DNA from: a virus
Length of the DNA: 42,388 nucleotides
Strand: one strand, 5' to 3'
UHGV virus genome: UHGV-1353509
Made by a program: the position numbers and the translations under genes. The notes beneath the pieces were generated by a model that was not told the DNA's origin, ran no database searches, and saw nothing but the letters and a program-made list of their open reading frames with translations. Below, one piece after another: positions 1 through 42,388 of this stretch; position 1 is the first letter of the stretch; every line of letters begins with the position of its first letter.

Positions 1-3000
1 ACAACGTCCGTATTAAAGAGATTATTCTCCCTGGCTAATGTCTTTTCTGCGGAGATCGAATTTGAGACAGTACTGAACAGAGACTACTCTTTAAAAGAGA
101 TTGTCCTAAATGTATATCGGAAACACTCCGATACAGACAGCGGAGTCGGAGAATACCGGAATGACATTGTACTGCGGTACGGGAAAGGAATTACCGGAAT
201 TCGAAAAACCACAGATGCCGAGAAGCTTTACACCTGTATCCAGCCGATCGGGAAAGACGGGCTGACGATTAATGGACTGGACAAAAAAGAATACGATGAG
301 AACGGGAATATCGAGTACTTTACAGACGGCGCAATCATCCGGGCACCACAGGCAAGAGACCGGTTTCCATCCAACATCGTAAATAAGGCTGATGCTTATA
401 TCCTGATGCGGAAAGAGTATGATACGGATAACAAGGACAAGCTCTATAGCATGGCTCTGTCTGATCTTAAAACAGCATCCGAACCAGTAGTGACCTACGA
501 GGTGGATGGATATTTTGACACCAACATCGGGGACACCGTGAGGATGCAGGATCAGGAGTGGACACCAGTGCTTTATCTACAGGCGAGAGTGTCCGAACAG
601 GTGCGCAGTCTTACCAATCCAAAGACAGCAAAGACGGTATTTACAAACTACAAAGAGCTTACATCCGAAATTTCGGACAGCTTATTACAGAGGATGCAAG
701 ACCTTATTAATAAAAATAAGGTTTATACTTGCTCTATCTCAACAAACAACGGCATTATCTTTAAAAATGGCAGCGGCAGCACTACTCTTACTGCTTACGC
801 TTACGATAACGGCGTGGATATGGCGGACAAGCTACAATTCCGATGGAGCAAGGATGGACATGAGTTTTATGTTGGTAAGAGCGTTACGGTAAATGCTACT
901 GACGTGGATACAAAGGCGGTGTACTCATTTGAGGCTCTAGAAAATGGGATAAAACGTGGGTATTACGAGGTCACAATCACGGATGTAATGGATGGAGAGG
1001 ATGGAAAAGACGGGGAACAGGGTCCTCAGGGCGAGAAAGGAGAGCAAGGCGAACAGGGGATTCCTGGAACAGCTGGTGCGAATGGAAAGACCAGTTATTT
1101 CCACATCAAGTATTCTTCTGTGGCAAAGCCGACAACGTTCAGTCAGATGACAGAGACGCCGTCTGCTTATATTGGAACTTATGTGGACTTTGTACAGGAA
1201 GATTCTACAGATCCTGCAAGATATACCTGGTCGCAGTTTAAAGGATCGCAAGGCGTAAAAGGAGATCAGGGAATTGCTGGTAAGAATGGTGCAGATGGGA
1301 AAACAAGTTATTTACATATCGCCTACGCAAACAGTGCTGATGGAAAGACAGGGTTTGATGTTTCGAATAGCGCTGGGAAGTTTTATATTGGACAGTATAC
1401 AGATTTCACGCAAGCGGATTCTACAGACCCGACGAAATACGCATGGACAAAAATCAAAGGCGAAAATGGAAAAGACGGAACAAACTCAAGGAGCTACATC
1501 CTGGAAGCGTCCGATACCGCTATTAAAAAAGGTGCAGACGGAGCTTTAACACCATCTAAAATAACATTCCGGTCGTTTTATCGAGATGGAGACAGTGCGA
1601 CAAGGATACCATATAATGGTAGATTTAAAATCGAAGAGTCAACCAACGGAACATCATACTCCGTGAAATACACCTCATCTGCGAACGAAAGTGCAAAGGA
1701 GTATACACCGACTGCAACTGCGAAAATACTCCGTTGCACGCTTTACAGCGCAGACGGGACTATAAATGCTTTGGATACGCAGAGTGTTGTTGTGCTTACG
1801 GATGTGGATAATTTGGAGATTGGCGGTAGGAATTTACTATTAAACACAGGGTTTAATACTTTTAACCATTGGATTAAAGGTAGTAATACAAAATCTCTCC
1901 AGATGGTTAATGGATGGTGTGAAGTTACGATTGGTGGGACATGGTCTGGATTTGTTCAAGAATTTATACCAGAAAAAAATGTTGAATACATAGTGAGTTA
2001 CGAAGCGTATCTGGTAGACACTGTTGCTGAAACTGCTATGTTAGAAACAGATTTTGGTACTCCAGATCAAAATCAAACAATTAACAAAACGCCTGCAAAA
2101 TATTCATTGAAATTAAAATATCCATCTACATCTTTAAATGGAAAAATAGATTTCATGTTATCAAATAATGAAGTGGGTAAAAAATGGAGAATTCGAAATA
2201 TCAAACTTGAAAAGGGTAATAAAGCCACAGACTGGTCTCCCGCTCCTGAGGACATAGAAACTTTAGTAGTAACATTGTCCAACGATTCCCAAACAGTAGC
2301 AACAGACACAAACGGAAACGGTGGAAACTTTATAGATTGCTCTACAAAAGTGCAGGTTTACAACGGCGCACAGGACGTTTCAAAAGTCGCTACTTACACC
2401 GTAACAAAATCTTCCGGAATTGCTGGTACATGGGATTTAAGTACACGTACTTACAAGGTATCCGCTCTATCTACGGATAACGGATGGGTTGACATTAAAG
2501 TAACATACAACGGAAATTCTATCACAAGACGGTTTACGGTTTCGAAATCGAAACAGGGCGCGCAGGGAGCAACGGGACCTCAAGGTGATAATGGACCACA
2601 AGGGCCGGCGGGGACATCAGGAAGAGGGATAAAAACTATTACAGAATATTATTTGATTTCTTCCGCAAAAACAGGAATTACAACAGCGTCAAGCGGTTGG
2701 AGTACATCAGTTCCGACGATGACAGCAACAAATAAATACTTGTGGAACTATGAAAAATTTACGTTTACAGATAATACGACAGCGACCACTACACCAAAAA
2801 TAATCGGGATATACGGAGACAAAGGAGCAACAGGAGCTACCGGTCCACAAGGACCTCAAGGGAATGCAGGTGCAACAGGTCCCCAGGGGCCACAAGGAGC
2901 GACTGGCCCGAAAGGACCGCAGGGGGCAACTGGTGCAACGGGACCACAAGGGGTAACTGGAAACGGAATAAAGTCTATCACGAATTATTATCTTGCAACG

Positions 3001-4059
3001 GCAAGCGGAAGCGGTGTGTCGGCGTCCACATCAGGATGGACTACAACTGTACAAGCAATAACGGCGTCAAAAAAATATCTGTGGAATTATGAGGTTGTTA
3101 CCTATACAAATGGTAGCACGTATCAATCAGCACCATGTATCATCGGAGTATATGGTGATAAGGGAGCGACAGGTGCTACAGGAGCAACAGGACCAAGTGG
3201 CATAATTGTATCTTCTACGGCTCCGTCAAATCCTAAAGTTGGCCAGTTATGGCAAACGGCATCCGGTCAGCCGATCAAGCGGTGGGATGGAAGTAGGTGG
3301 GTGATCCATTATATCGCAGTCGAAAATCTGGACGTGCAAACGCTCAGTGCGATCGTTGCCAACCTTGGAACTGTAACAGCCGGACTTATTAAGAGTAAGG
3401 GTGGACACTTTTACATAAATGTAGACACCGGAGAGATCGTGTCTAAAAGCAGTGACGGTACAATTTCCGTTTTTGTAAAAAAAGAGAATATTGACATGGT
3501 AAGATCGTTTACAGCGTCTAGGTACTGGGGGAGTCGATTAAACTACTCTGGATTAGAATTTTATTCCGGCGGCAGTAGCATGGCAGATGATATCGCGAAT
3601 GGATCTATGGTATGCTCTATTCGCGGAGATGAGGAGATGCGTGACTTTTCGGTGACAAACATAAATGGAGATAGCATATGGCTTATTAGGACAATTAAGC
3701 AGCTTACAAAATCTATCTCTTACGATTCCGGTACCGTGAAAGGTCCATATACAAGTACAAACTCCGCAAATAACATCCGTGTGGAACTAAAAAGAAGAGG
3801 ATGTATGGTAACATGCAAGATCACAATGCTTGCACAATTTCCAGGAAGTGGCGAACACGGGCCATTCAACGAGGTGAAAATTCCAGTAGGATATCGACCG
3901 GTTGTGGATTTCTTTGCTCCCTATAGCGAAGTTGTAGGATCTAACATATTCGGAACGGGAAGATACGGCATAGGAAAAGATGGGGGGATCAAGATTTATG
4001 TGGAGAATGCCGCATGGACAGAACGTCACGCAGCGTTTACGTGGATTACAGATGATTGA
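1..4059 (+). CDS. Tail-associated protein (Tal) fused to a receptor-binding tail fibre, C-terminal ~1350 aa; 5' partial because the frame is open from base 1
   Basis: Frame 1 has no stop from nt 1, so the ORF-track start at 406 is not the true start. Five collagen-like G-X-Y tracts and two pairs of duplicated ~55-70 aa modules ([11 protein letters not shown].../[11 protein letters not shown]... and [12 protein letters not shown].../[13 protein letters not shown]...). Lies downstream, across the window junction, of the Dit and tail endopeptidase N-terminus. Confidence 0.8.
994..1092 (+). repeat. Collagen-like G-X-Y coding repeat ([33 protein letters not shown]) inside the tail gene
   Basis: 11 consecutive Gly-X-Y triplets in a locally GC-rich island. 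Similar tracts at 1243-1305, 2554-2628 and 3154-3200. Confidence 0.8.
2815..2969 (+). repeat. Longest collagen-like tract of the tail gene (17 G-X-Y triplets, [51 protein letters not shown])
   Basis: Read directly from the translation. The DNA is a near-repetitive ggNccN 9-mer pattern. Confidence 0.8.
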
Positions 4060-4140
4060 TTAAAGGAGCAAATATGGAGATAAGAGCAAGACCCTCACGG
4101 TCTTATTTTTATACTTTAAACCAGAAAGGAAAGTGAGGAT

Positions 4141-4255
4141 ATGAAGAAAATGGAACAGTTGGCAAATGTAAAAGCGTTTTTATGCATGGTGTTTGGAGCC
4201 ATTGTTGGAGGATTTGTAAATCTGATTGGAGGATGGTCCGAGGATTTGACTACAT
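4141..4255 (+). pseudogene. Holin (Phage_holin_4_1 / TcdE-like) N-terminal fragment, truncated by the IS insertion
   Basis: ATG with RBS GGAAAGTGAGG. Encodes MKKMEQLANVKAFLCMVFGAIVGGFVNLIGGWSEDLTT, including a TM helix. The frame runs into the IS and stops 2 codons inside it. Confidence 0.6.
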
Positions 4256-5980
4256 CCTGAATCCGTGAAGTTCGGAGATTTTTAATGTTGATCCCTGAAG
4301 GGAACAGATCAACACTGAGAATTTCTATTCTGTGGCATGCAACACTTCTTTGTAAAGATCATCGTTGCCTTAAGCAGCATGTTTATCCACAGGCATTGCC
4401 TAAAAAGGGCAGACGCCCCCCTTAAGCGCTACCTGTCATGGCGAAATATAGAAGTAAAATAGAAAAAATCATCACATACTGAATTGTGCAAATGCAGTAT
4501 ATATTTCGGCGAACGTATGTCGCCAGACATTACTTTTGCCCAGACCCATAATCAATTGCCGTGCATGCTCGGTAACATGGCTTGCCATCATAATCATGTT
4601 GCTGATAACCGTACGGAGTCTGCGACGATGTACCTTATGGCGTGTTTTTCTTCTGCCAATGGATTCCTGTCCAATCATCCGCAGGATATTGTAGGCAAGA
4701 ATGGTCAATTCAAGCACCAGTTCATTGGTGTCAAACTTTCCGGAAGGCAGCCGTTCCACATCCATATCGGTCTTGATTTCACTGTGAAACTGCTCACATT
4801 CACCATGGGCATGGTAATTCTGAATGACTTCTTCATCTGTCATCCCGGTATTCGTCCACCAAGTGTTCACTTCCAGATCAGAAGGAAGAAGAAATTGACC
4901 ATATTTATCGATGGTGCGTTCTATGATTTCGTATCCTGTACGTATGGTAACGGTTTTATCACTGCCATCCACTGTGTGATAAGTGACATCTTTCCAGTCA
5001 CTTCCAATATAGACGGTTTTTCCGTCACGTGGGGATGTGATATTTTGCGAGTTGGTTTTTGCCATCTCGAACCACGCTTCCCTGCTTTCACGGCGTAGAT
5101 TTCGTTTTATAATGAAATAACAGCCGCTTTCCAACAGAATTCCAATGTTCTCTGCGGCATCATTCCCGGAATCTAAGCGGATAAGGAGCGGCTCATTTGT
5201 GAGTTGTTTACACAGTTTAATTGTTTCACGCAGAAAACCGGGTGTGTCGCACTGGCAATGTTGCCTTCCCTCACGCAGTTGTGCATTGATTAGATACCCT
5301 TCCGTTCCGATATAAGCCATGATTGGAGCATATCCATCATACCCTTTATAAGTACGTGATACGCCTTCTTTTCTGGTTTTCGAATTGTCAAATGGTGTGA
5401 CATCAATGTCAACCGGAACGAAACCATTGGGAAGTTTGGAAGGAACGATTCCATTGGAACGCAAAAGTTCCACGTTTTCTGCCAGAATATGTTCTCGCTG
5501 GGAAGAGCCAATATCATCCATTCTCTGGCGGAGGGTTTCTTCTGATGGAATGTTGTAGGCGATTCCAAGAGCACTTTTATAAAAATCCCGGTCATCATCC
5601 ATTTCATGAACAGCCTGAAATTGTGGTTTCCCCATACACAACATACCAATATAGGAAAGGAGAATGTCGCCATTTTTAATCTGATGCTGCGAACGGTTGG
5701 GAGTTACATCCATTCGATTGCAGCGTTTTACAAAATTGCTTTTGCCAAGGATAGCACCTACAACAGCAAGACCGCTTGCAGGAATAATACGTTCATTGGT
5801 AAATTCAATTTTTATATTTTTCATGATATTCTCTCCTTTGTAATGTAAATTTCTAAGAAGATTATACCAGAAAGAGACTTCACCCAACAGGTGAAAATAA
5901 AAAATACGGAAACATCTTGAAAACCATTGGAAATTCAGCCCTTTCGATGATTAAGGGGAGTTGAACTTCACGGATTCAGG
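4256..5980 (-). mobile_element. Insertion sequence, IS1380-family-like, 1725 bp, with 18-bp perfect terminal inverted repeats and a 5-bp target duplication TACAT
   Basis: Left IR CCTGAATCCGTGAAGTTC at 4256-4273. Right IR GAACTTCACGGATTCAGG at 5963-5980, its reverse complement. TACAT at 4251-4255 and 5981-5985. One 450-aa DDE transposase ORF inside. Confidence 0.8.
4472..5824 (-). CDS. DDE transposase, IS1380/IS4 superfamily
   Basis: 450 aa from the ATG at 5824, with RBS AAGGAGAG at 8 nt. Acidic catalytic-region motifs (LIRLDSGNDAAEN..., YFIIKRN). Size and IR/TSD geometry fit IS1380. Family assignment is by recall only. Confidence 0.7.
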   Translation of the reverse strand: MKNIKIEFTNERIIPASGLAVVGAILGKSNFVKRCNRMDVTPNRSQHQIKNGDILLSYIGMLCMGKPQFQAVHEMDDDRDFYKSALGIAYNIPSEETLRQRMDDIGSSQREHILAENVELLRSNGIVPSKLPNGFVPVDIDVTPFDNSKTRKEGVSRTYKGYDGYAPIMAYIGTEGYLINAQLREGRQHCQCDTPGFLRETIKLCKQLTNEPLLIRLDSGNDAAENIGILLESGCYFIIKRNLRRESREAWFEMAKTNSQNITSPRDGKTVYIGSDWKDVTYHTVDGSDKTVTIRTGYEIIERTIDKYGQFLLPSDLEVNTWWTNTGMTDEEVIQNYHAHGECEQFHSEIKTDMDVERLPSGKFDTNELVLELTILAYNILRMIGQESIGRRKTRHKVHRRRLRTVISNMIMMASHVTEHARQLIMGLGKSNVWRHTFAEIYTAFAQFSM

Positions 5981-6323
5981 TACATTACTTATTTTTATGG
6001 GTGTAGACTTTGTTCTTGGATTGCTGATCGCTGCCTTTTGGAAAAAGAGCAACAAGTCGGAAAACGGGGCACTGAGTAGCTACTCAGCGTGGAAAGGTCT
6101 ATGCAGAAAAGGGGTGTCTCTACTGATTGTACTTATTGCATACCGATTGGATGTCACTCTCGGTGTAGACTATATCCGTACAGCGGTAGTACTGGCATTT
6201 ATAGCAAATGAGGGGATCTCGATTTTGGAAAATGTTGGAATTATGGGCGTAAAATATCCGGAAGCATTAAAAAAAGCACTGGATGTTTTAACAAATAAAT
6301 CACAGGAGCAGGAGGGCGAGTAA
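5981..6323 (+). pseudogene. Holin C-terminal fragment, Phage_holin_4_1 family, in frame with fragment 4141-4255 once the IS plus one TSD copy is removed
   Basis: Reconstructed junction ...SEDLTT|LLIFMGVDFVLGLLIAAFWKKS... carries the family signature D-x-x-x-G...A, KGxxxKG, NEGISILEN and 3-4 TM helices. No independent RBS or start after the IS. Confidence 0.65.
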
Positions 6324-6370: not shown

Positions 6371-6637
6371 ATGGGTAGCAGAGAATTTTTAAACATTTGC
6401 AAAGCAAAGGTAGCGGATTATTTTAATCAGAATAAAGACAAGACTGATACATCTGACAACATGACGGTAGATGATGTATTTGTAGTTTGGTATTGCAAGA
6501 CACTGCAAAATCATAAGGCATTGCTTAGTACGCCAGTAAGTGATGGTATGTATTACGAGATCACTTACAGTGGAGATAAGAATGAGATCTACTTTGATGC
6601 TTATAAAAAGTGGGAAAACATTAAATTTGATATGTAA
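6371..6637 (+). CDS. Hypothetical protein (88 aa) inside the lysis cassette
   Basis: ORF between holin and amidase. Preceded by the palindrome GTGCGATATCGCAC. Confidence 0.5.
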   Translation: MGSREFLNICKAKVADYFNQNKDKTDTSDNMTVDDVFVVWYCKTLQNHKALLSTPVSDGMYYEITYSGDKNEIYFDAYKKWENIKFDM

Positions 6638-6669
6638 TTGTGCGACATCGTACGGTAGGAGGTGAGAAC

Positions 6670-6759
6670 ATGAGCGAACAGAACGAATTTGGAAGAATAA
6701 CAGCAGAGGAACTGGAAAAGGTATTTGAGACAGAAGAACAGGAGGAAGAGAAAGAATGA
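6670..6759 (+). CDS. Small acidic protein (29 aa)
   Basis: Strong RBS TAGGAGGTGAG at 6 nt. Stop overlaps the amidase start (ATGA). Confidence 0.35.
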   Translation: MSEQNEFGRITAEELEKVFETEEQEEEKE

Positions 6760-7562
6760 AAATTGGCTTAAGGGGAGGACACTCCCCAAATTGTAAAGGT
6801 GCAATCGGTCTGATCGATGAGCAGGCAGAAGTGCGGAAGATCTACAATGAGCTCGCACCAATGTTAGAGGCTGCCGGTCATACTGTGATTGATTGTAATT
6901 CCAACGCATCCAATGTGTCTGGTGAGCTGTCTGACGGCACAAATAAGGCGAATAGTGCGGGGTGCGATATCTATGTCACCTTGCACATGAATGCGGCAGG
7001 AGCGGCGTCAGCCGGCGGTACAGAGGTGTGGTTATACGATGCATCTAACCAGACTATGAACACGATCGCAAGCAACATCTGTAATAATTTTGCAGGAAAA
7101 GGATTTGCAAACCGCGGTGTTAAATATAGTTCCGGCTATCATGATCTGAATGCATCCAATATGCCCGGTATGATCGTAGAGACATTATTTTGCACCGGCA
7201 CAGATGATGTAGCACGGTATCGTAGTTTAGGCACAAAAGGAATTGCTGAGCTGATTGCAAAGGCGATCGACAGTAGAGCGTCTGCATGCAGCGAACAAAA
7301 AAATAACCAGAATACAGGAATCGAACAGGAAGGAGAAGAAGAGATGAAATGTTTATTTACAGTAGAGGGAAAAGGTGCAGTGTATTATTTTGACGGTCAA
7401 AAAGTAATAACATTGGGTCATCCAGACGAATTAAAAATCATCCAGCAGATTTACAAGGACAACAATGGTAAGGACATGCCGTGTTACAAGTGGAGTCCTA
7501 AAGCGCCATGGTATGCAAGGCTCATGTCGGTAATTTACAGTAAAGAGACCACATCTATTTAA
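6756..7562 (+). CDS. Endolysin: N-acetylmuramoyl-L-alanine amidase (Amidase_3 catalytic domain) plus a C-terminal wall-binding domain
   Basis: MKIGLRGGHSPNCKGAIGLIDE... and ...DIYVTLHMNAAG... are typical of the CwlA/Amidase_3 family. RBS GGAGGAAGAGAAAGA. Confidence 0.8.
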   Translation: MKIGLRGGHSPNCKGAIGLIDEQAEVRKIYNELAPMLEAAGHTVIDCNSNASNVSGELSDGTNKANSAGCDIYVTLHMNAAGAASAGGTEVWLYDASNQTMNTIASNICNNFAGKGFANRGVKYSSGYHDLNASNMPGMIVETLFCTGTDDVARYRSLGTKGIAELIAKAIDSRASACSEQKNNQNTGIEQEGEEEMKCLFTVEGKGAVYYFDGQKVITLGHPDELKIIQQIYKDNNGKDMPCYKWSPKAPWYARLMSVIYSKETTSI

Positions 7563-7786: not shown

Positions 7787-8230
7787 TTATCTTGCATTTT
7801 TTCCAAAGCTATAGCAGTCATAAAAGCTATCAACAAGCTTTGCAAGCTCATCCGGTGTTAATTTGTCAAACAGTGTTTCTGGTATCCATTTGTAATTTTC
7901 GTAAAATGTACTTTCAAAGCTTCCAATCTTGCTGAGTTTTTTGATTTTCTGGTATTTGTCCATCCTTAAAAGGTCATGTAAGTCCATTTCTCCATCTTTT
8001 AAAGACTGTTTAGTTTCGCTGGTAAAAACGTTTAAGTCTAATGCCAACATATCCTCAACGCTGCATCCGAGTGCGCCAGATAAAGCCTGCGCATTTTTTG
8101 CAGTCATGTTACTTACGTCAATTTCGCCTTTTTCAATTTTCTGTATCTGACGGATGTTAATACCGGTTTTCTCCGCCAATTCTCTTTGAGTAAGGTTCAT
8201 AAATTTCCTAAGTTCTTTAAGTTCTGCCAT
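7787..8230 (-). CDS. XRE-family HTH transcriptional regulator with a C-terminal domain of unknown function
   Basis: N-terminal LTQRELAEKTGINIRQIQKIEKGE is a classic Cro/C1 HTH. Last gene of a 3-gene minus-strand operon. Confidence 0.7.
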   Translation of the reverse strand: MAELKELRKFMNLTQRELAEKTGINIRQIQKIEKGEIDVSNMTAKNAQALSGALGCSVEDMLALDLNVFTSETKQSLKDGEMDLHDLLRMDKYQKIKKLSKIGSFESTFYENYKWIPETLFDKLTPDELAKLVDSFYDCYSFGKNAR

Positions 8231-8275
8231 AGTTCTTTTCCTTCTCCCCGTGTAGCCGATAGGACAGCAATTTAA

Positions 8276-8464
8276 TTAGATGTGTCTTGCAATTATATTT
8301 TTTTCAGTTACTGCGAGGTCATCAATATTTGTTACTTCGATAATTTCGTACTCGGAGTAATCTTCCCAACCTAAAGTCAATTCGTTTCCACTTTCATCAA
8401 AAAAGTTGGCTGGTCTCATTTCATCAAAAAAGGTTCTTTCCATGTATTTTTTTAAGTTTTCCAT
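8276..8464 (-). CDS. Hypothetical protein (62 aa)
   Basis: ORF with RBS, in the operon with 8486-8911. Confidence 0.45.
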   Translation of the reverse strand: MENLKKYMERTFFDEMRPANFFDESGNELTLGWEDYSEYEIIEVTNIDDLAVTEKNIIARHI

Positions 8465-9246: not shown

Positions 9247-9315
9247 ATATTGTATCATTTATTTTGTACTAATTATACTACTCCAAATGGGGTTGAATAC
9301 TTAGTACAAAACAGA

Positions 9316-10710
9316 TTATAAAAAATCTACAGCCTTAATCGTATTGTCATCATTTAGGTAAATCTCCTGTATCGTTGATCTCCAAAAAGAACGCTTGTTT
9401 TCCGGAGACAGCGAATCATACATCTGGCGAAAGTCAGTTTTTAATAGTTCTTCTACATAATGAAGGTTTCTCGTCTCTTCTTCCTCTGGAAAATCAGCAG
9501 AAACGGAATATTCTTTCTCTAATCTTTGGTACTCCTTATCGTAGTAATCGAAAGAAATCCTCCCCTTTTGAAATAACAAATTTAATCGTTCCATTTCTTT
9601 TCTCAGCTTTTCTGGATCTTTTGCTTTCTTTTGCTTTTTTAGCTCTTCACCGATCTGGTTGCTGCGTACTTTATACTTTTCGTATTCTCTTTCGAGATTT
9701 TCGAGCAAATATTTTTCGACAAGGTTTTGGCTTACCCTATGCCTATACGTGCAAATATGATCGATAAGTGCTCTATTGCAACGGTAGTAGCAGTACGTCC
9801 TTTTTTCACGTGTTGTACGATTTATAATTGATGAGCATCCGGTACCGACTAATTTCTGTCCGCATACAGGACAGTGCATCAAACCCGTAAATAGGTATAC
9901 TCTACCAGACGGCGTGTTTTTAATATTTCTTTTCGATATAATCTGCATCTCATCCCATTCTTTTTCTGACAGGTATGCTGGACAATAAGGGTATCCTCTG
10001 TACGTCCCTTTATAAAATTCGCTGGATAACATCGTCCGTAACATGCCATAGCTAAAATCAATTCCATAGGTTTCCTGCATGTGCCGGATAGCACCTTTTT
10101 TGGTGTTATGGTTTTTAAAGTATCTAAAAAAATCTTCCACCATGTGTTCTGTTTCCGGATCTTTAACCATGCATTTCTTCCCATCTACAATACCTGATTT
10201 ATAACCAAAAGGCATATTTGCATCTCCAAAAATTAGTTTTTTCTGTCTTATAGATGCTTCATTCACAAATTTAATTCGCTCGGAGGTTGTGTCTACTTCG
10301 TTCTGGCCGATTGACAGCACTACATTTAATTGCAAGCGTCCATCCCGTGTCTCCATGTTGATTCCCGGCTCAGATACGGAGATCCAGCGCACTCCATGAT
10401 CATCCAGAACGTCCTGAACTTTATAAAAGTCTGACAGGTTTCGAAACCATCTATCCAATCTCCAGAATAGTATTACATCAATTCTATCCATTTTCACGTC
10501 CTCTACAAGAGCATGTATGGCCTTTCTTTTCTTCAGTTCTTTTCTTGCAGTCTTTCCCTCATCCGCATAGACACCTACTATAGACATGTTGTTGTCTGTT
10601 GCGTATTGTTCCAAACATTCTTTCTGGGCTTGTAAAGACTTACCATGTACACTCTGCTCAAATGTGGATACTCGGATATATATGGCGCACCGTAGTATTT
10701 TTTCTGGCAT
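9316..10710 (-). CDS. int: Large serine recombinase (phage integrase)
   Basis: N-terminal resolvase domain with catalytic Ser in YIRVSTFEQ. Recombinase domain, zinc ribbon (HCPVCGQK...CYYRCNR) and C-terminal coiled coil. RBS AAGGAGAG. Confidence 0.9.
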   Translation of the reverse strand: MPEKILRCAIYIRVSTFEQSVHGKSLQAQKECLEQYATDNNMSIVGVYADEGKTARKELKKRKAIHALVEDVKMDRIDVILFWRLDRWFRNLSDFYKVQDVLDDHGVRWISVSEPGINMETRDGRLQLNVVLSIGQNEVDTTSERIKFVNEASIRQKKLIFGDANMPFGYKSGIVDGKKCMVKDPETEHMVEDFFRYFKNHNTKKGAIRHMQETYGIDFSYGMLRTMLSSEFYKGTYRGYPYCPAYLSEKEWDEMQIISKRNIKNTPSGRVYLFTGLMHCPVCGQKLVGTGCSSIINRTTREKRTYCYYRCNRALIDHICTYRHRVSQNLVEKYLLENLEREYEKYKVRSNQIGEELKKQKKAKDPEKLRKEMERLNLLFQKGRISFDYYDKEYQRLEKEYSVSADFPEEEETRNLHYVEELLKTDFRQMYDSLSPENKRSFWRSTIQEIYLNDDNTIKAVDFL

Positions 10711-11411: not shown

Positions 11412-12476
11412 TTATTTATCTTGCTCCATGTATCTTTTTGCCACTTCGATCAACTTGTCCTTATATCCGTATAGATCATTCAGTGTTTCGATATAAAAAC
11501 GCTCCATCTTTTTATTTTCATCTGGAATAAATAATTGTTTGTTTTTCTTGTCGAGGTTTATTCTGCAAATAGGTTTTCGATTATTGTCCTTGTACAAAAT
11601 ACCGAAGTAGCTTTCAGTATCTCTATGTACAACATCATTGACATCTACAGTTCCTGCAAGCATCCCCCGCACAATGTAAAACGCCTCAATTTCTTCTTCT
11701 GTAGTCACGATTTTTGATACTGGCTCTACAGGTGTTTCTTCTACTTCATTTTTTGCATCATCGTTATCTTTTGTGAGAGCGGAAGAGATCTTATTATTTA
11801 CTATTTCATTGACAAATGATGAGAACGATCTTTTCACAACGGGCGTGAATTTTTCAATCACTCTTTGATTTTTCTGTCCGTCATATATGTTTGTAAGTAC
11901 AAGTCTTACAAATTCTTCTGATGGTGCTTCGAATTCAGCAGATAAAACTCCTTTTATTAAAGAACTATACTTCAATTCTTCGGCTGTGCTGAATATTTTT
12001 TCTTTGTCAAAATTCTCTTTGCAGAATTTTCTTAATTCGTTAATAGAAGAGTCTTTTAAGTTAATCATATTTATTTCAAGAAATGGCACTAAATCCATTT
12101 TGTTTGCTTCTTCTAAGTCGGTGTAAAATCTATATATGATTCCATTTGTTAAAATCCCAAACTTAGCAGGAGACGTGCCAAAATATCTGAAAAGTTGAGA
12201 AGAATGTTTGTCTAACTGTTCAGAACAACTCTTGCATTCAATCAAAATACTTGGTTCTCCATTATCCAAAATCGCATAGTCGACCTTTTCTCCCTTTTTA
12301 ATGCCAACATCTGCAGTGTATTCAGGACAAAATTCCAACGGGTTGAATACATCGTACCCAAGTATCTGGAACATTGGGACGATTAAAGACATTTTTGTTG
12401 CTTCTTCGGTGGATACAGTATCCTTTATCATAGATACACGTTCCGAAAATTGTTTAATAGATTCGTTGAACTCCAT
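11412..12476 (-). CDS. PD-(D/E)XK nuclease-fold protein with a type I restriction enzyme HsdR N-terminal-like domain (354 aa)
   Basis: Motif VDYAILDNGEPSILIECKS (D...E-x-K) followed by ...QLFRYFG...FGILTNG matches the HSDR_N layout. C-terminal 150 aa of unknown function. Confidence 0.55.
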   Translation of the reverse strand: MEFNESIKQFSERVSMIKDTVSTEEATKMSLIVPMFQILGYDVFNPLEFCPEYTADVGIKKGEKVDYAILDNGEPSILIECKSCSEQLDKHSSQLFRYFGTSPAKFGILTNGIIYRFYTDLEEANKMDLVPFLEINMINLKDSSINELRKFCKENFDKEKIFSTAEELKYSSLIKGVLSAEFEAPSEEFVRLVLTNIYDGQKNQRVIEKFTPVVKRSFSSFVNEIVNNKISSALTKDNDDAKNEVEETPVEPVSKIVTTEEEIEAFYIVRGMLAGTVDVNDVVHRDTESYFGILYKDNNRKPICRINLDKKNKQLFIPDENKKMERFYIETLNDLYGYKDKLIEVAKRYMEQDK

Positions 12477-17933: not shown

Positions 17934-18608
17934 ATGAAAAAATTTGAATTAACCAGTGAATTTGTAACTTTTTTAGGAAAGAAGCTCTTTAGAATCAAGG
18001 CACTTGTAGCGTTTGGTGATGTAGAAGAGGGTGAATTAGGGGGATTTGTAGAAAAGGAAGAGAACCTTGACCAGTCCGGTAACGCTTGGGTATGCGGTAA
18101 CGCTTGTGTATGCGGTAACGCTTGTGTATACGGTAACGCTCGGGTATCCGGTAACGCTTGTGTATGCGGTAACGCTTGTGTATACGGTAACGCTCGGGTA
18201 TCCGGTGACGCTCTGGTATACGGTAACGCTCAGGTATCCGGTGACGCTCTGGTATACGGTAACGCTCAGGTATCCGGTGACGCTCAGGTATCCGGTGACG
18301 CTCAGGTATGCGGTAACGCTCAGGTATCCGGTGACGCTCAGGTATCCGGTAACGCTCGGGTATCCGGTGACGCTTGGGTGCAATGCTGCCGCGATTATTC
18401 TGCTACAAGCTGCTTCGGATCCCAAAATAGGACGACAACATTTTTCCGCGAGAAAGACGGCGGAATCGGCGTGAGATGTGGATGTTTTTACGGAACACTG
18501 GACGAATTTAGGAAAAAGGTGAAAGAACGCCACGGAGACAGCCGATTGGCAAAGGAATATTTGATGTTAGCAGATTTGATGGAGTTTAGATTGTCCAGGG
18601 ATGAGTAG
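17934..18608 (+). CDS. Hexapeptide-repeat protein (17 tandem G-[ND]-A-x-V-x units, predicted beta-helix) with a Cys-rich C-terminal domain
   Basis: RBS AAAGGAGAGAAATG. Unique N- and C-terminal sequence flanks 306 bp of near-perfect 18-bp repeats. Confidence 0.6.
   Translation: MKKFELTSEFVTFLGKKLFRIKALVAFGDVEEGELGGFVEKEENLDQSGNAWVCGNACVCGNACVYGNARVSGNACVCGNACVYGNARVSGDALVYGNAQVSGDALVYGNAQVSGDAQVSGDAQVCGNAQVSGDAQVSGNARVSGDAWVQCCRDYSATSCFGSQNRTTTFFREKDGGIGVRCGCFYGTLDEFRKKVKERHGDSRLAKEYLMLADLMEFRLSRDE
18077..18382 (+). repeat. 17 x 18-bp tandem repeat (consensus GGTAACGCTCAGGTATCC) with nested perfect 54-bp and 36-bp duplications
   Basis: Counted directly in the sequence. All six frames are open through it, which creates spurious ORFs. 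Confidence 0.9.
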
Positions 18609-40429: not shown

Positions 40430-41951
40430 GTTCGTTGATACAAATTCGGTGGGGAATGCAAAATCCATTCCGAGTGAAGCTCTCCAAATTGATGGGAAGT
40501 ATATTGAAAATCTAATTGATGGATATCGGACTCTATATGTGAGCGGACGTGAACTTCTGGAGTCTGAAATTACGGATAGGGAAATTGATGGAATTGGTGG
40601 ATCGGAGTACTTGGATAGCCGCAGCGTAACAAGGGATATCACAATTGGGTATCAGATGCTTTGCACATCTCCAGCTGAGTTTCGAGAAAAATTCAATAGG
40701 CTCTCTGATGTTTTAAATAAAGAGCAGGCGAAATTGGTTTTTGCGGATGAACCGGATAAATACTTTATCGGAACAAAGTCAAGTGTTGGAGATATAGAAC
40801 CCGGTAGGCTGAGCGTAAAAGGCGAATTTACTTTTTATTGTTGCGACCCGTGCAAATACTCTACTGCAGAAAAGCAGTTCCCAGGCATCCAGCAGAACGG
40901 GTACCAGACCATCACCATCCAAAACAACGGCACCGAATGGGCAGACGTGGACTATGAGATCACACACCAACACGAAAACGGCTTTATCGGACTAGTAAGC
41001 CAGTATGGAGTGATCCAGCTCGGAAAACAGGAAGAGGCGGACGGAGAGAACTACGAAGCGTCCGAAGAACTGTTTAACGGTTACGGCTTGTTTCAAGATG
41101 ATCACGGCACCTCTTACCAAAATCCAGAAAACACCACACAGGGAACACTCGAAGTCAAGAATGTTGCCGGATATAACGTGATGGCATTAAAAGGTGGACA
41201 AGCAACATCCGGATACTGGAACGGTGGAATGAAAACACTTACTATCCCGGCAGACAGCGAGGGCAGACGTGGTGCGAAGAATTTTTATTGTTATACGCAG
41301 CACTGGTTCGAAACCGGATTAATGGGGCAGACAGGAGCACAGACCATTGCGTTTCTGACAGGCGATAATAAAGTAATCTGCGCAATGTCTATCAACAAGA
41401 GTGATTCTGTCGGAAACACGGCTCGTATCGAGTGGTTTGCTCCCGGAAACACATTAATCAGACGAGAAGAGTTCCAACCGACAGCCTACGAGGGTAATCC
41501 GTTTAATCTTAAAATGGGATGCCACAACGACTTTTTAAAAGAGGGAGAAAAGCTGCGGATTTTCTGGTATGGTACTTACAGAGATCTCACGATCCCAGAA
41601 ATTAAAGACATGGAATGCGAAAAAATCCAGATCTGGATTGGACAGTGGGGAGACAGGAATCTTACAAACCAGTACGTTACACACAACTATTTAAAAAGCA
41701 TTCGTTTCCGAAAAGACAATGTCGATAAGTATAAGGACGTACCAAACCGGTATCGTGCCGGAGATGTGGTGTCTATAGATGGAGAGAGTACAAAGGTCTA
41801 TGTAAACGGGATGCCGGCAAAAGGAGATGAGATTAATGGATCCAATTATCCAAAAGTTCCACCGGGGACAACGGAAGTCCAGTTCTGCTACTCTTCCTTT
41901 TCCTCTCCTCCGCCGCAGATTAAAGCAAAAATAAGAGAGGTATACTTGTAA
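40416..41951 (+). CDS. Distal tail protein (Dit, Sipho_tail family) with a long C-terminal extension (evolved Dit)
   Basis: N-terminal Dit pattern. 511 aa, against about 250 aa for a minimal Dit. Confidence 0.7.
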   Translation: MYMYEFVDTNSVGNAKSIPSEALQIDGKYIENLIDGYRTLYVSGRELLESEITDREIDGIGGSEYLDSRSVTRDITIGYQMLCTSPAEFREKFNRLSDVLNKEQAKLVFADEPDKYFIGTKSSVGDIEPGRLSVKGEFTFYCCDPCKYSTAEKQFPGIQQNGYQTITIQNNGTEWADVDYEITHQHENGFIGLVSQYGVIQLGKQEEADGENYEASEELFNGYGLFQDDHGTSYQNPENTTQGTLEVKNVAGYNVMALKGGQATSGYWNGGMKTLTIPADSEGRRGAKNFYCYTQHWFETGLMGQTGAQTIAFLTGDNKVICAMSINKSDSVGNTARIEWFAPGNTLIRREEFQPTAYEGNPFNLKMGCHNDFLKEGEKLRIFWYGTYRDLTIPEIKDMECEKIQIWIGQWGDRNLTNQYVTHNYLKSIRFRKDNVDKYKDVPNRYRAGDVVSIDGESTKVYVNGMPAKGDEINGSNYPKVPPGTTEVQFCYSSFSSPPPQIKAKIREVYL

Positions 41952-42388
41952 TGGACAGCATTAGAATTGCGATTTTAAGTGCAAATAACACGCCTGTAGC
42001 GTTTATGGATAATGCGCACAAAAAGTCCATGCACTACTGGGGTGATGAGCTACACGAATACTTACAGGGAGCAGCGAATACCTATACTTTTACGGTAAAC
42101 GCCAAACATCCAGACGCAGAACATGTTACAGTCGGAAACAAGGTAGCCTTTACATGCAAGGGTAAATCTTACTACTTAAATATTGTAAATACCGACCAAA
42201 CGGAGCAGACGATTACTGCCACGGCGTGGTCACTGTCGTTTGAGTTAATCAACGAGGATGCTGGCGAATATAAAGCCGGAAAAGCAATGAGCATTGAAGA
42301 GTACATTTCCGTATTTGACGCGGAGAGGACACTTAAATTGGGTCTCAACGAGGTGTCAGATAAGCGGATCACCAACGAATGGACCGGT
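41951..42388 (+). CDS. Tail-associated endopeptidase (Tal) N-terminal 146 aa; 3' partial, continues in frame at window position 1
   Basis: TAATG overlap with the Dit gene. MDSIRIAILSANN... is the Prophage_tail family N-terminus. Exactly 146 codons to the window end. Confidence 0.75.
   Translation, partial: MDSIRIAILSANNTPVAFMDNAHKKSMHYWGDELHEYLQGAANTYTFTVNAKHPDAEHVTVGNKVAFTCKGKSYYLNIVNTDQTEQTITATAWSLSFELINEDAGEYKAGKAMSIEEYISVFDAERTLKLGLNEVSDKRITNEWTG

Follow-up and report, generated by a model that had tools for sequence, protein, structure and literature searches.

The viral genome UHGV-1353509 was analyzed over its full length of 42,388 nucleotides (the window hereafter), and we focus on a region in which an insertion sequence (IS) lies within the holin gene of a temperate phage. 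Downstream of a tail-fibre gene the window carries the first part of the holin gene, the IS with its transposase antisense to the holin, the remainder of the holin gene, a small gene of the DUF6275 family, and an endolysin gene that starts 433 nt past the holin. The Ruminococcus phage phiRgPS_6 (MT980839) has the same order of tail fibre, holin and endolysin and contains the target TACAT once; it differs from the window in having no IS, no DUF6275 gene, a tyrosine integrase instead of a serine recombinase, and a genome of 37.8 kb. The original prediction, a model's reading of the letters of the window, placed here a 1,725-bp element with perfect 18-bp repeats, a 450-amino acid (aa) transposase and TACAT flanks, and each of its coordinates was confirmed. 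These are collected in Table 1 with the open reading frames (ORFs) of the lysis region and the two copies of the target site duplication (TSD).

Table 1. Features of the interrupted lysis region, with coordinates in the window
Feature	Coordinates	Strand	Basis or remark
Holin 5' fragment	4141-4255	+	codons 1-38 and first base of codon 39; first hydrophobic segment
Left TSD copy, TACAT	4251-4255		single TACAT in the empty sites of phiRgPS_6 and of the prophages L024-L033
IS1380-family IS, 1,725 bp	4256-5980	-	inverted repeats, family model, 10 full-length copies with the same ends
Terminal inverted repeat, transposase-distal end, CCTGAATCCGTGAAGTTC	4256-4273		repeat search
Transposase, 450 aa	4472-5824	-	NF033539, PF13701, identical to WP_118445622.1
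Terminal inverted repeat, transposase-proximal end, GAACTTCACGGATTCAGG	5963-5980		repeat search
Right TSD copy, TACAT	5981-5985		direct sequence reading
Holin 3' fragment	5986-6323	+	last two bases of codon 39, codons 40-150, stop; DFVLG, KGLCRKG, NEGISILEN
108-aa ORF from Met43	5997-6323	+	no Shine-Dalgarno; starts 5 residues into the second hydrophobic helix
DUF6275 gene between holin and endolysin	6371-6637	+	PF19791, 115 bits
Endolysin, N-acetylmuramoyl-L-alanine amidase, 268 aa, intact	6756-7562	+	PF01520 (Amidase_3), 82.5 bits

The insertion sequence

The ends of the element are defined by its two terminal inverted repeats, CCTGAATCCGTGAAGTTC at the left end being the exact reverse complement of the last 18 bp at the right end. 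This 18-mer has no further occurrence elsewhere in the 42-kb window, and the pair is the sole long perfect inverted repeat in the region. TACAT directly abuts both ends. We estimate the probability of a perfect 18-bp inverted pair arising by chance within 3 kb in 42 kb at ~0.002, to which the matching 5-bp flank adds an extra factor of ~0.001, and the same end bases are found in 10 further full-length copies from unrelated contexts. A chance origin of the repeats is excluded because the estimate is already ~0.002 before the flank match is considered and because 10 copies end identically. The transposase gene is the only long ORF in the element; it encodes 450 aa from its ATG, and a TTG located 21 codons upstream gives the 471-aa ORF of a program-made list.

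The transposase had been assigned to the IS1380 family from the letters, and this assignment is borne out by a score of 335.1 bits, with a cut-off of 180, against NF033539, the NCBIfam model for such transposases, aligned over positions 1-418 of its 419, and by 107 bits against PF13701. The protein is identical to RefSeq WP_118445622.1, annotated as 'IS1380 family transposase [Mediterraneibacter gnavus]'; M. gnavus, also known as Ruminococcus gnavus, is a gut bacterium. Members of the IS1380 family (ISfinder) are compact elements of ~1.6-1.8 kb that have one transposase ORF and short terminal inverted repeats starting with CC, and the repeats of the window element begin CCTGAATCC, i.e. 5'-CC. 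It was determined that D139/D141, D218 and E344 are invariant, together with the motif H340-(3)-E344-(6)-K351, among seven homologues down to 40% identity, and these D...D...E residues are the putative catalytic residues. Membership was judged on the model cut-off, the compact layout, a TSD of 4-5 bp, the DDE residues, and identical copies or site polymorphism, and the window element agrees with the family in layout, TSD length, model score and evidence of transposition. It shares with the family, which includes IS1380, ISEcp1 and IS942, a single transposase ORF of ~450 aa, a length of ~1.7 kb, 5'-CC repeats, a 5-bp A/T-rich TSD, the presence of many identical copies at different sites and the putative D...D...E residues with H-(3)-E-(6)-K. 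It differs from the known members in its origin from Lachnospiraceae, its nearest relatives in the species-representative genomes of GTDB having only ~80% protein identity. Unlike ISEcp1, it has no evident passenger gene or outward-promoter effect, and its transposase is directed away from the downstream genes. Promoter-like matches in the region were at chance level (9 against 7.7 expected), and the terminator-like matches on the plus strand of the IS contained only short, weak hairpins.

An exact-sequence look-up found the transposase of WP_118445622.1 on 296 contigs and in 609 blocks of the assembly collection. On 10 long gut-metagenome contigs the copies are full-length and 99.94-100% identical to that in the window, with homology stopping at the inverted repeats; the window copy is identical to those of L012 and L138 and one synonymous nucleotide (window position 5522) away from the majority. 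Near-identical copies were seen next to over 15 different flanking sequences. In the cases in which the two flanks form a pair, the TSDs at other sites are TTTGT, GAATA, TTGTC, ATTAA and TCTTT(A), all A/T-rich, the last of which can be read as a duplication of 5 or 6 bp. Additionally, the site that is occupied in the window is empty in phiRgPS_6 and in ten sampled M. gnavus prophages (L024-L033). The element is clearly an active, multicopy IS1380-family IS of M. gnavus, since near-identical copies are present at many sites and occupied and empty sites coexist, and it is strain-variable. A 26-mer from the IS end had no match in IMG/VR or in the GTDB representative genomes, the IS DNA had no match in the phage collection, and in the plasmid collection it matched only short stretches of other IS1380 transposase genes at 70-80% identity.

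Five chromosomal copies on metagenome contigs (L003, L006, L007, L009 and L011) have mismatched flanks and no TSD, and one flank of each is shared with other loci. These odd flanks are due either to rearrangements brought about by the IS or to chimeras formed at the repeat during assembly.

The interrupted holin gene

When the IS and one TACAT are removed, the two holin fragments join in frame to give 453 nt encoding 150 aa and a stop codon, with DFVLG, KGLCRKG and NEGISILEN in the product. A holin of the Phage_holin_4_1 family had been anticipated from such an excision, and the reconstructed ORF scores 110.1 bits against PF05105 (Phage_holin_4_1; cut-off 22.2) and 86.4 bits against TIGR01593 (cut-off 40.2). 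The protein is identical to WP_322100027.1, 'phage holin family protein [M. gnavus]', which was found on 687 contigs and in 1,295 blocks, and this intact allele occurs on contigs of up to 731 kb. Compared with phiRgPS_6 gp17 (QOI66219.1), 149 of the 150 residues are identical, the sole change being V22A, and 36 of the 37 nucleotide differences are silent. At the site, phiRgPS_6 DNA has one TACAT and the sequence GACTACATTACT, precisely what excision would produce. This phage is plaque-forming, and cultures infected with it lyse within about 2 h (PMC10072058).

Empty-site alleles, which the original prediction had suggested looking for in related prophages, are abundant, occurring in the cultured lytic/temperate phage phiRgPS_6 and in 10/10 sampled M. 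gnavus prophages; in the latter one TACAT is present and the 150 aa are identical, with 20-28 silent differences in each. Among the best 120 homologue clusters nearly all are full length, most being 142-154 aa with at least 95% coverage, and only a few are shorter or longer. Because variation is silent only and full-length homologues are nearly universal, the N-terminal 42 residues and the holin as a whole are under strong purifying selection. The identical holin of the ten prophages (8001-8453 in each) is found alongside different tail fibres, different endolysins (Amidase_2 or Amidase_3) and different integration sites, and the gene behaves as a strongly constrained, freely recombining module.

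Kyte-Doolittle analysis of the 150-aa holin gives hydrophobic segments at residues ~8-26, 38-56, 81-99 and 101-119, the second of which is the strongest and contains DFVLG, followed by the C-terminus KKALDVLTNKSQEQEGE. The assignment to Phage_holin_4_1 combines the model score with several transmembrane segments, a charged C-terminus and an endolysin neighbourhood. Proteins of this family, the 'toxin secretion/phage lysis holin' group (PF05105, TIGR01593) that includes Clostridioides difficile TcdE, are small membrane proteins with 3-4 hydrophobic segments, and the window holin shares with them a first core helix containing D, the charged C-terminus, and a place in the last part of the late operon, immediately before an amidase endolysin gene. 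Host lysis by phiRgPS_6, whose holin is 149/150 identical, suggests indirectly that the intact protein would form the membrane lesion through which the endolysin is released. The window gene differs from the family in being split by the IS. Even the intact M. gnavus holin has an extra N-terminal hydrophobic segment (~8-30), only the last residues of which are in the Pfam match, which starts at residue 27. The IS is inserted between codons 38 and 39. It separates the first hydrophobic segment from the most hydrophobic helix (residues ~38-56, with the D-F-x-x-G motif of the family), whose N-terminal edge coincides with the insertion point. The 5' fragment now reads into the IS as a 39-aa ORF (4141-4260) that ends in LTTS and a stop, and the same 39-aa call is found in other assemblies of the phage.

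Two other disrupted alleles look real. One contig (L018, 783-785) has a TTA to TGA nonsense change at holin codon 39, and two others (L016 and L017, ~7980-7989) have a 10-bp tandem duplication, ACTTATTTTT, just after the position of codon 39. A natural stop at this position in related phages had been named beforehand as grounds for abandoning the holin reading; the holin reading stands nonetheless because the L018 stop is a rare derived mutant set against ~1,300 collection blocks with the intact 150-aa allele. A hotspot of holin disruption at codons 32-44 was considered and largely rejected. The 44-aa fragments (P0137) are explained by contigs that end at a polymorphic base or by frameshifts in a polished long-read contig, the P0140 fragment comes from a contig with 2x coverage, and three further candidates (L019, L020 and L023) contain runs of N. 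Such a hotspot is not established, since the look-up was biased towards fragments of this size and region.

The lysis cassette after insertion

The 3' fragment had been described as having neither a start codon nor a ribosome-binding site of its own. The first part of this description does not hold, as two in-frame start codons exist, and the second does, as no ribosome-binding site is present at usable spacing. The ATG at 5997 (Met43), 12 nt past the junction, opens a 108-aa ORF that is called in public assemblies with a PF05105 match; no Shine-Dalgarno sequence is present within 4-15 nt of this ATG. The TTG at 5961 lies within the end of the IS. It starts an ORF of 120 aa, a hybrid whose first 7 residues come from the IS, and the purine-rich AAGGGGAG abuts this TTG with essentially no spacer. 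Both truncated products are without the first hydrophobic segment, and the 108-aa form is also without the first third of the core helix. TcdE is made from several natural start codons, which results in isoforms; unlike in TcdE, nothing marks Met43 of the window holin as an internal start that is used naturally.

It could be argued that the split gene keeps holin activity through the 108-aa or 120-aa product, so that the timing of lysis is altered and not abolished. Both ORFs are open and in frame, the 108-aa ORF has its PF05105 match in precomputed annotation, AAGGGGAG lies right before TTG 5961, and the phage has been recovered repeatedly in circular form. We consider this quite improbable. 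The ATG lacks a Shine-Dalgarno sequence and the purine tract lacks a spacer, Met43 lies 5 residues inside the strongest transmembrane helix with the first hydrophobic segment lost, and the promoter scan described above gave no outward promoter at the end of the IS. Moreover, the 150 aa are invariant across alleles that carry 20-28 silent changes, and the N-terminal region is kept in nearly all homologue clusters.

The endolysin gene is intact, as the original prediction had it, and its product and phiRgPS_6 gp18 have 96% full-length identity. Inspection of its N-terminus by eye, without a predictor, found no obvious hydrophobic or signal-like segment. A scan of the phage for small multi-transmembrane genes found no second holin candidate, as at least two hydrophobic segments occurred only in antisense shadow ORFs. 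In holin-endolysin lysis, release of the endolysin generally needs the holin. In summary, the holin gene of a temperate siphovirus received a copy of the active M. gnavus IS by transposition, with duplication of TACAT, and the full-length holin would no longer be made. The intact endolysin would then stay trapped in the cytoplasm, and the phage, having lost its own timed lysis, would still excise, would probably replicate, and would depend on other routes of release. From the general requirements of holin-endolysin systems, the phage's own timed lysis is most likely lost because the full-length holin would no longer be made and the endolysin has no obvious signal-like segment.

Several neighbouring features were also observed. 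The DUF6275 gene and an acidic 39-aa ORF at 6640-6759 are both lacking in phiRgPS_6, and DUF6275 matches adjoin lysis genes in phages of Fusobacterium, Blautia, Clostridium and Lactobacillus. A G+C-rich hairpin with a T-run (4088-4104), located after the stop codon of the tail fibre and ahead of the holin gene, is terminator-like on both strands, and holin transcription may depend on read-through or antitermination past it.

The circular phage genome

The interrupted gene had been described as that of a prophage, a description that has to be corrected in that the window represents the circular attP form of the phage and is not integrated. The gene for a 1,498-aa collagen-repeat tail fibre spans the window ends, 41951-42388 being joined in frame to 1-4059, and the join from end to start is crossed at 100% identity in three other assemblies. 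A serine recombinase gene is located at 9316-10710 on the minus strand. In integrated relatives with the same recombinase (L139 and L141-L145) homology ends at 9281, 35 nt past the recombinase stop, and is followed by host genes; position ~9281 is the probable attP crossover point. Position 9281 is crossed without interruption in the window and in its sister contigs, which therefore represent the excised attP form, a closed circular genome. The set of modules is complete, with the small and large terminase, an SPP1-type portal, a Mu F-like protein, tape measure, Dit, tail fibre and lysis genes as well as the serine recombinase, a CI-like repressor and a replisome organiser.

In the integrated relatives the recombinase is followed, 47 nt on, by an NMT1-family gene. 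The lysogeny module of the window also encodes, on the minus strand at 11412-12476, a 354-aa protein with an HSDR_N domain (N-terminal domain of type I restriction enzyme R); its gene is flanked by those of the recombinase and the repressor and may serve in defence or be a moron. Within ORF 17934-18608, the 18-bp unit TCCGGTAACGCTCGGGTA is repeated 16.9 times in tandem at 18075-18379. By our coordinate estimate this array lies roughly at one end of a gap in the ERZ28651594 contig. L138 aligns ambiguously with the window at the array, the stretch leading into it showing 19 mismatches and 2 gaps.

Age and spread of the insertion

Other contigs bearing the insertion were located through exact matches to four products, those of the 39-aa and 108-aa ORFs, the recombinase gene and the endolysin gene. 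Five contigs of this exact phage were read, all of at most 42.5 kb, and four stretches were compared; the samples possibly do not come from independent people. The window is matched at 100% identity, over 10-18 kb that include the IS, by contigs of ERZ28651594, SRR4305120 and ERZ652613; JGI has the last of these as well. The exact endolysin was found only on IS-bearing contigs, none of them longer than 50 kb and none joined to host DNA. An isogenic copy of the phage without the IS was not found, the empty-site contigs of IMG/VR being only ~94% identical, and the exact 34-mer across the left junction was absent from both IMG/VR and the JGI/ENA metagenome collection.

The original prediction had left a choice between domestication and a recent insertion. 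The second is favoured: the insertion is recent because the IS is identical to other copies, the TSD is perfect, and there is no secondary damage, the holin halves having no amino acid change relative to the commonest allele. The alternative is a dead prophage, fixed in its host, with a lysis gene that was knocked out long ago, and it is consistent with the presence of the IS in every record of the exact phage. Such an old domestication is very improbable, as the IS is 100% identical to other copies, the TSD is perfect without secondary mutations in the holin halves, all modules are intact, the contigs are in the attP form and never joined to host DNA, and the four compared stretches are 100% identical over 10-18 kb. 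The evidence favours a very recent, clonal insertion into an otherwise complete phage, fixed in its only known clone, and we infer that it is not a step in long-term prophage decay.

A multicopy IS may also be wrongly threaded into a phage contig during assembly, and the five chromosomal copies with mismatched flanks described above show that chimeric joins across this IS occur. As an explanation of the window such an artefact is barely credible: both junctions lie in one gene with a perfect 5-bp TSD, excision exactly restores a known protein, and the same junctions recur in ENA scaffolds, in a SPAdes NODE contig and in Logan, which come from different pipelines.

Discussion

Taken together, these observations point to a recent, clonal IS insertion in the holin gene that abolishes the phage's own timed lysis, a reading to which we assign a probability of roughly 85%. 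Several points weigh against it. The loss of lysis is predicted from the general requirements of holin-endolysin systems. Truncated or hybrid products from ATG 5997 and TTG 5961 could have residual activity. All assemblies of the phage are of phage length and in the excised attP form, which is unlike a dead prophage. Finally, the identical holin is present in many other M. gnavus prophages and could be supplied in trans.

This last point leads to an explanation that is compatible with loss of the phage's own lysis, namely that the phage is lysis-defective by itself and is released by the identical or near-identical holin of a co-resident or co-infecting prophage. Mosaic M. gnavus prophages of many kinds carry the identical 150-aa holin, the ending of contigs L147-L149 at a polymorphic base in the holin suggests that several alleles can be present per sample, and the phage is known only in the attP form. 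This remains a tentative and on balance doubtful proposal, as it presupposes both co-residence in the samples with this phage and co-induction, and excision and replication without release would also explain the circular form. Among the alternatives weighed here, complementation in trans is the only one with a positive hint, and it does not conflict with a recent insertion that abolishes the phage's own lysis.

The event itself is an ordinary insertional inactivation, in which the IS and its target belong to known families and both proteins are already in RefSeq. It is mildly unusual that a phage with a broken holin has been recovered repeatedly, and only, as a circular genome. Lambda S mutants over-replicate inside cells that do not lyse. 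It is conceivable, if rather unlikely, that the lineage persists without a holin of its own, either by over-replicating in non-lysing cells or by being released only through the holins of co-resident prophages. Full-text literature searches found no specific precedent for an IS in a holin gene and no paper describing the window insertion. A study of gut bacteria reported that IS insertions in prophage and other mobilome genes occur in almost every individual, coexist with wild-type alleles and persist over time (PMC10592638). It describes the same general phenomenon but is centred on Bacteroidia, with no mention of M. gnavus or of holins.

The locus provides a fully resolved case of an IS disrupting a phage lysis gene. 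For annotation, it means that the two holin fragments, and the 108-aa 'holin' of public assemblies, are halves of one gene. The insertion also marks an active IS1380-family element in M. gnavus, a species that has been linked to inflammatory bowel disease. If the lineage does persist without a holin of its own, the human gut would harbour in it a natural case of helper dependence or of a non-lytic carrier state. The finding would gain weight if the lysis-defective phage persists and spreads. How a temperate gut phage is maintained or released without its own holin is a testable question, because every record of the phage is circular and bears the IS.

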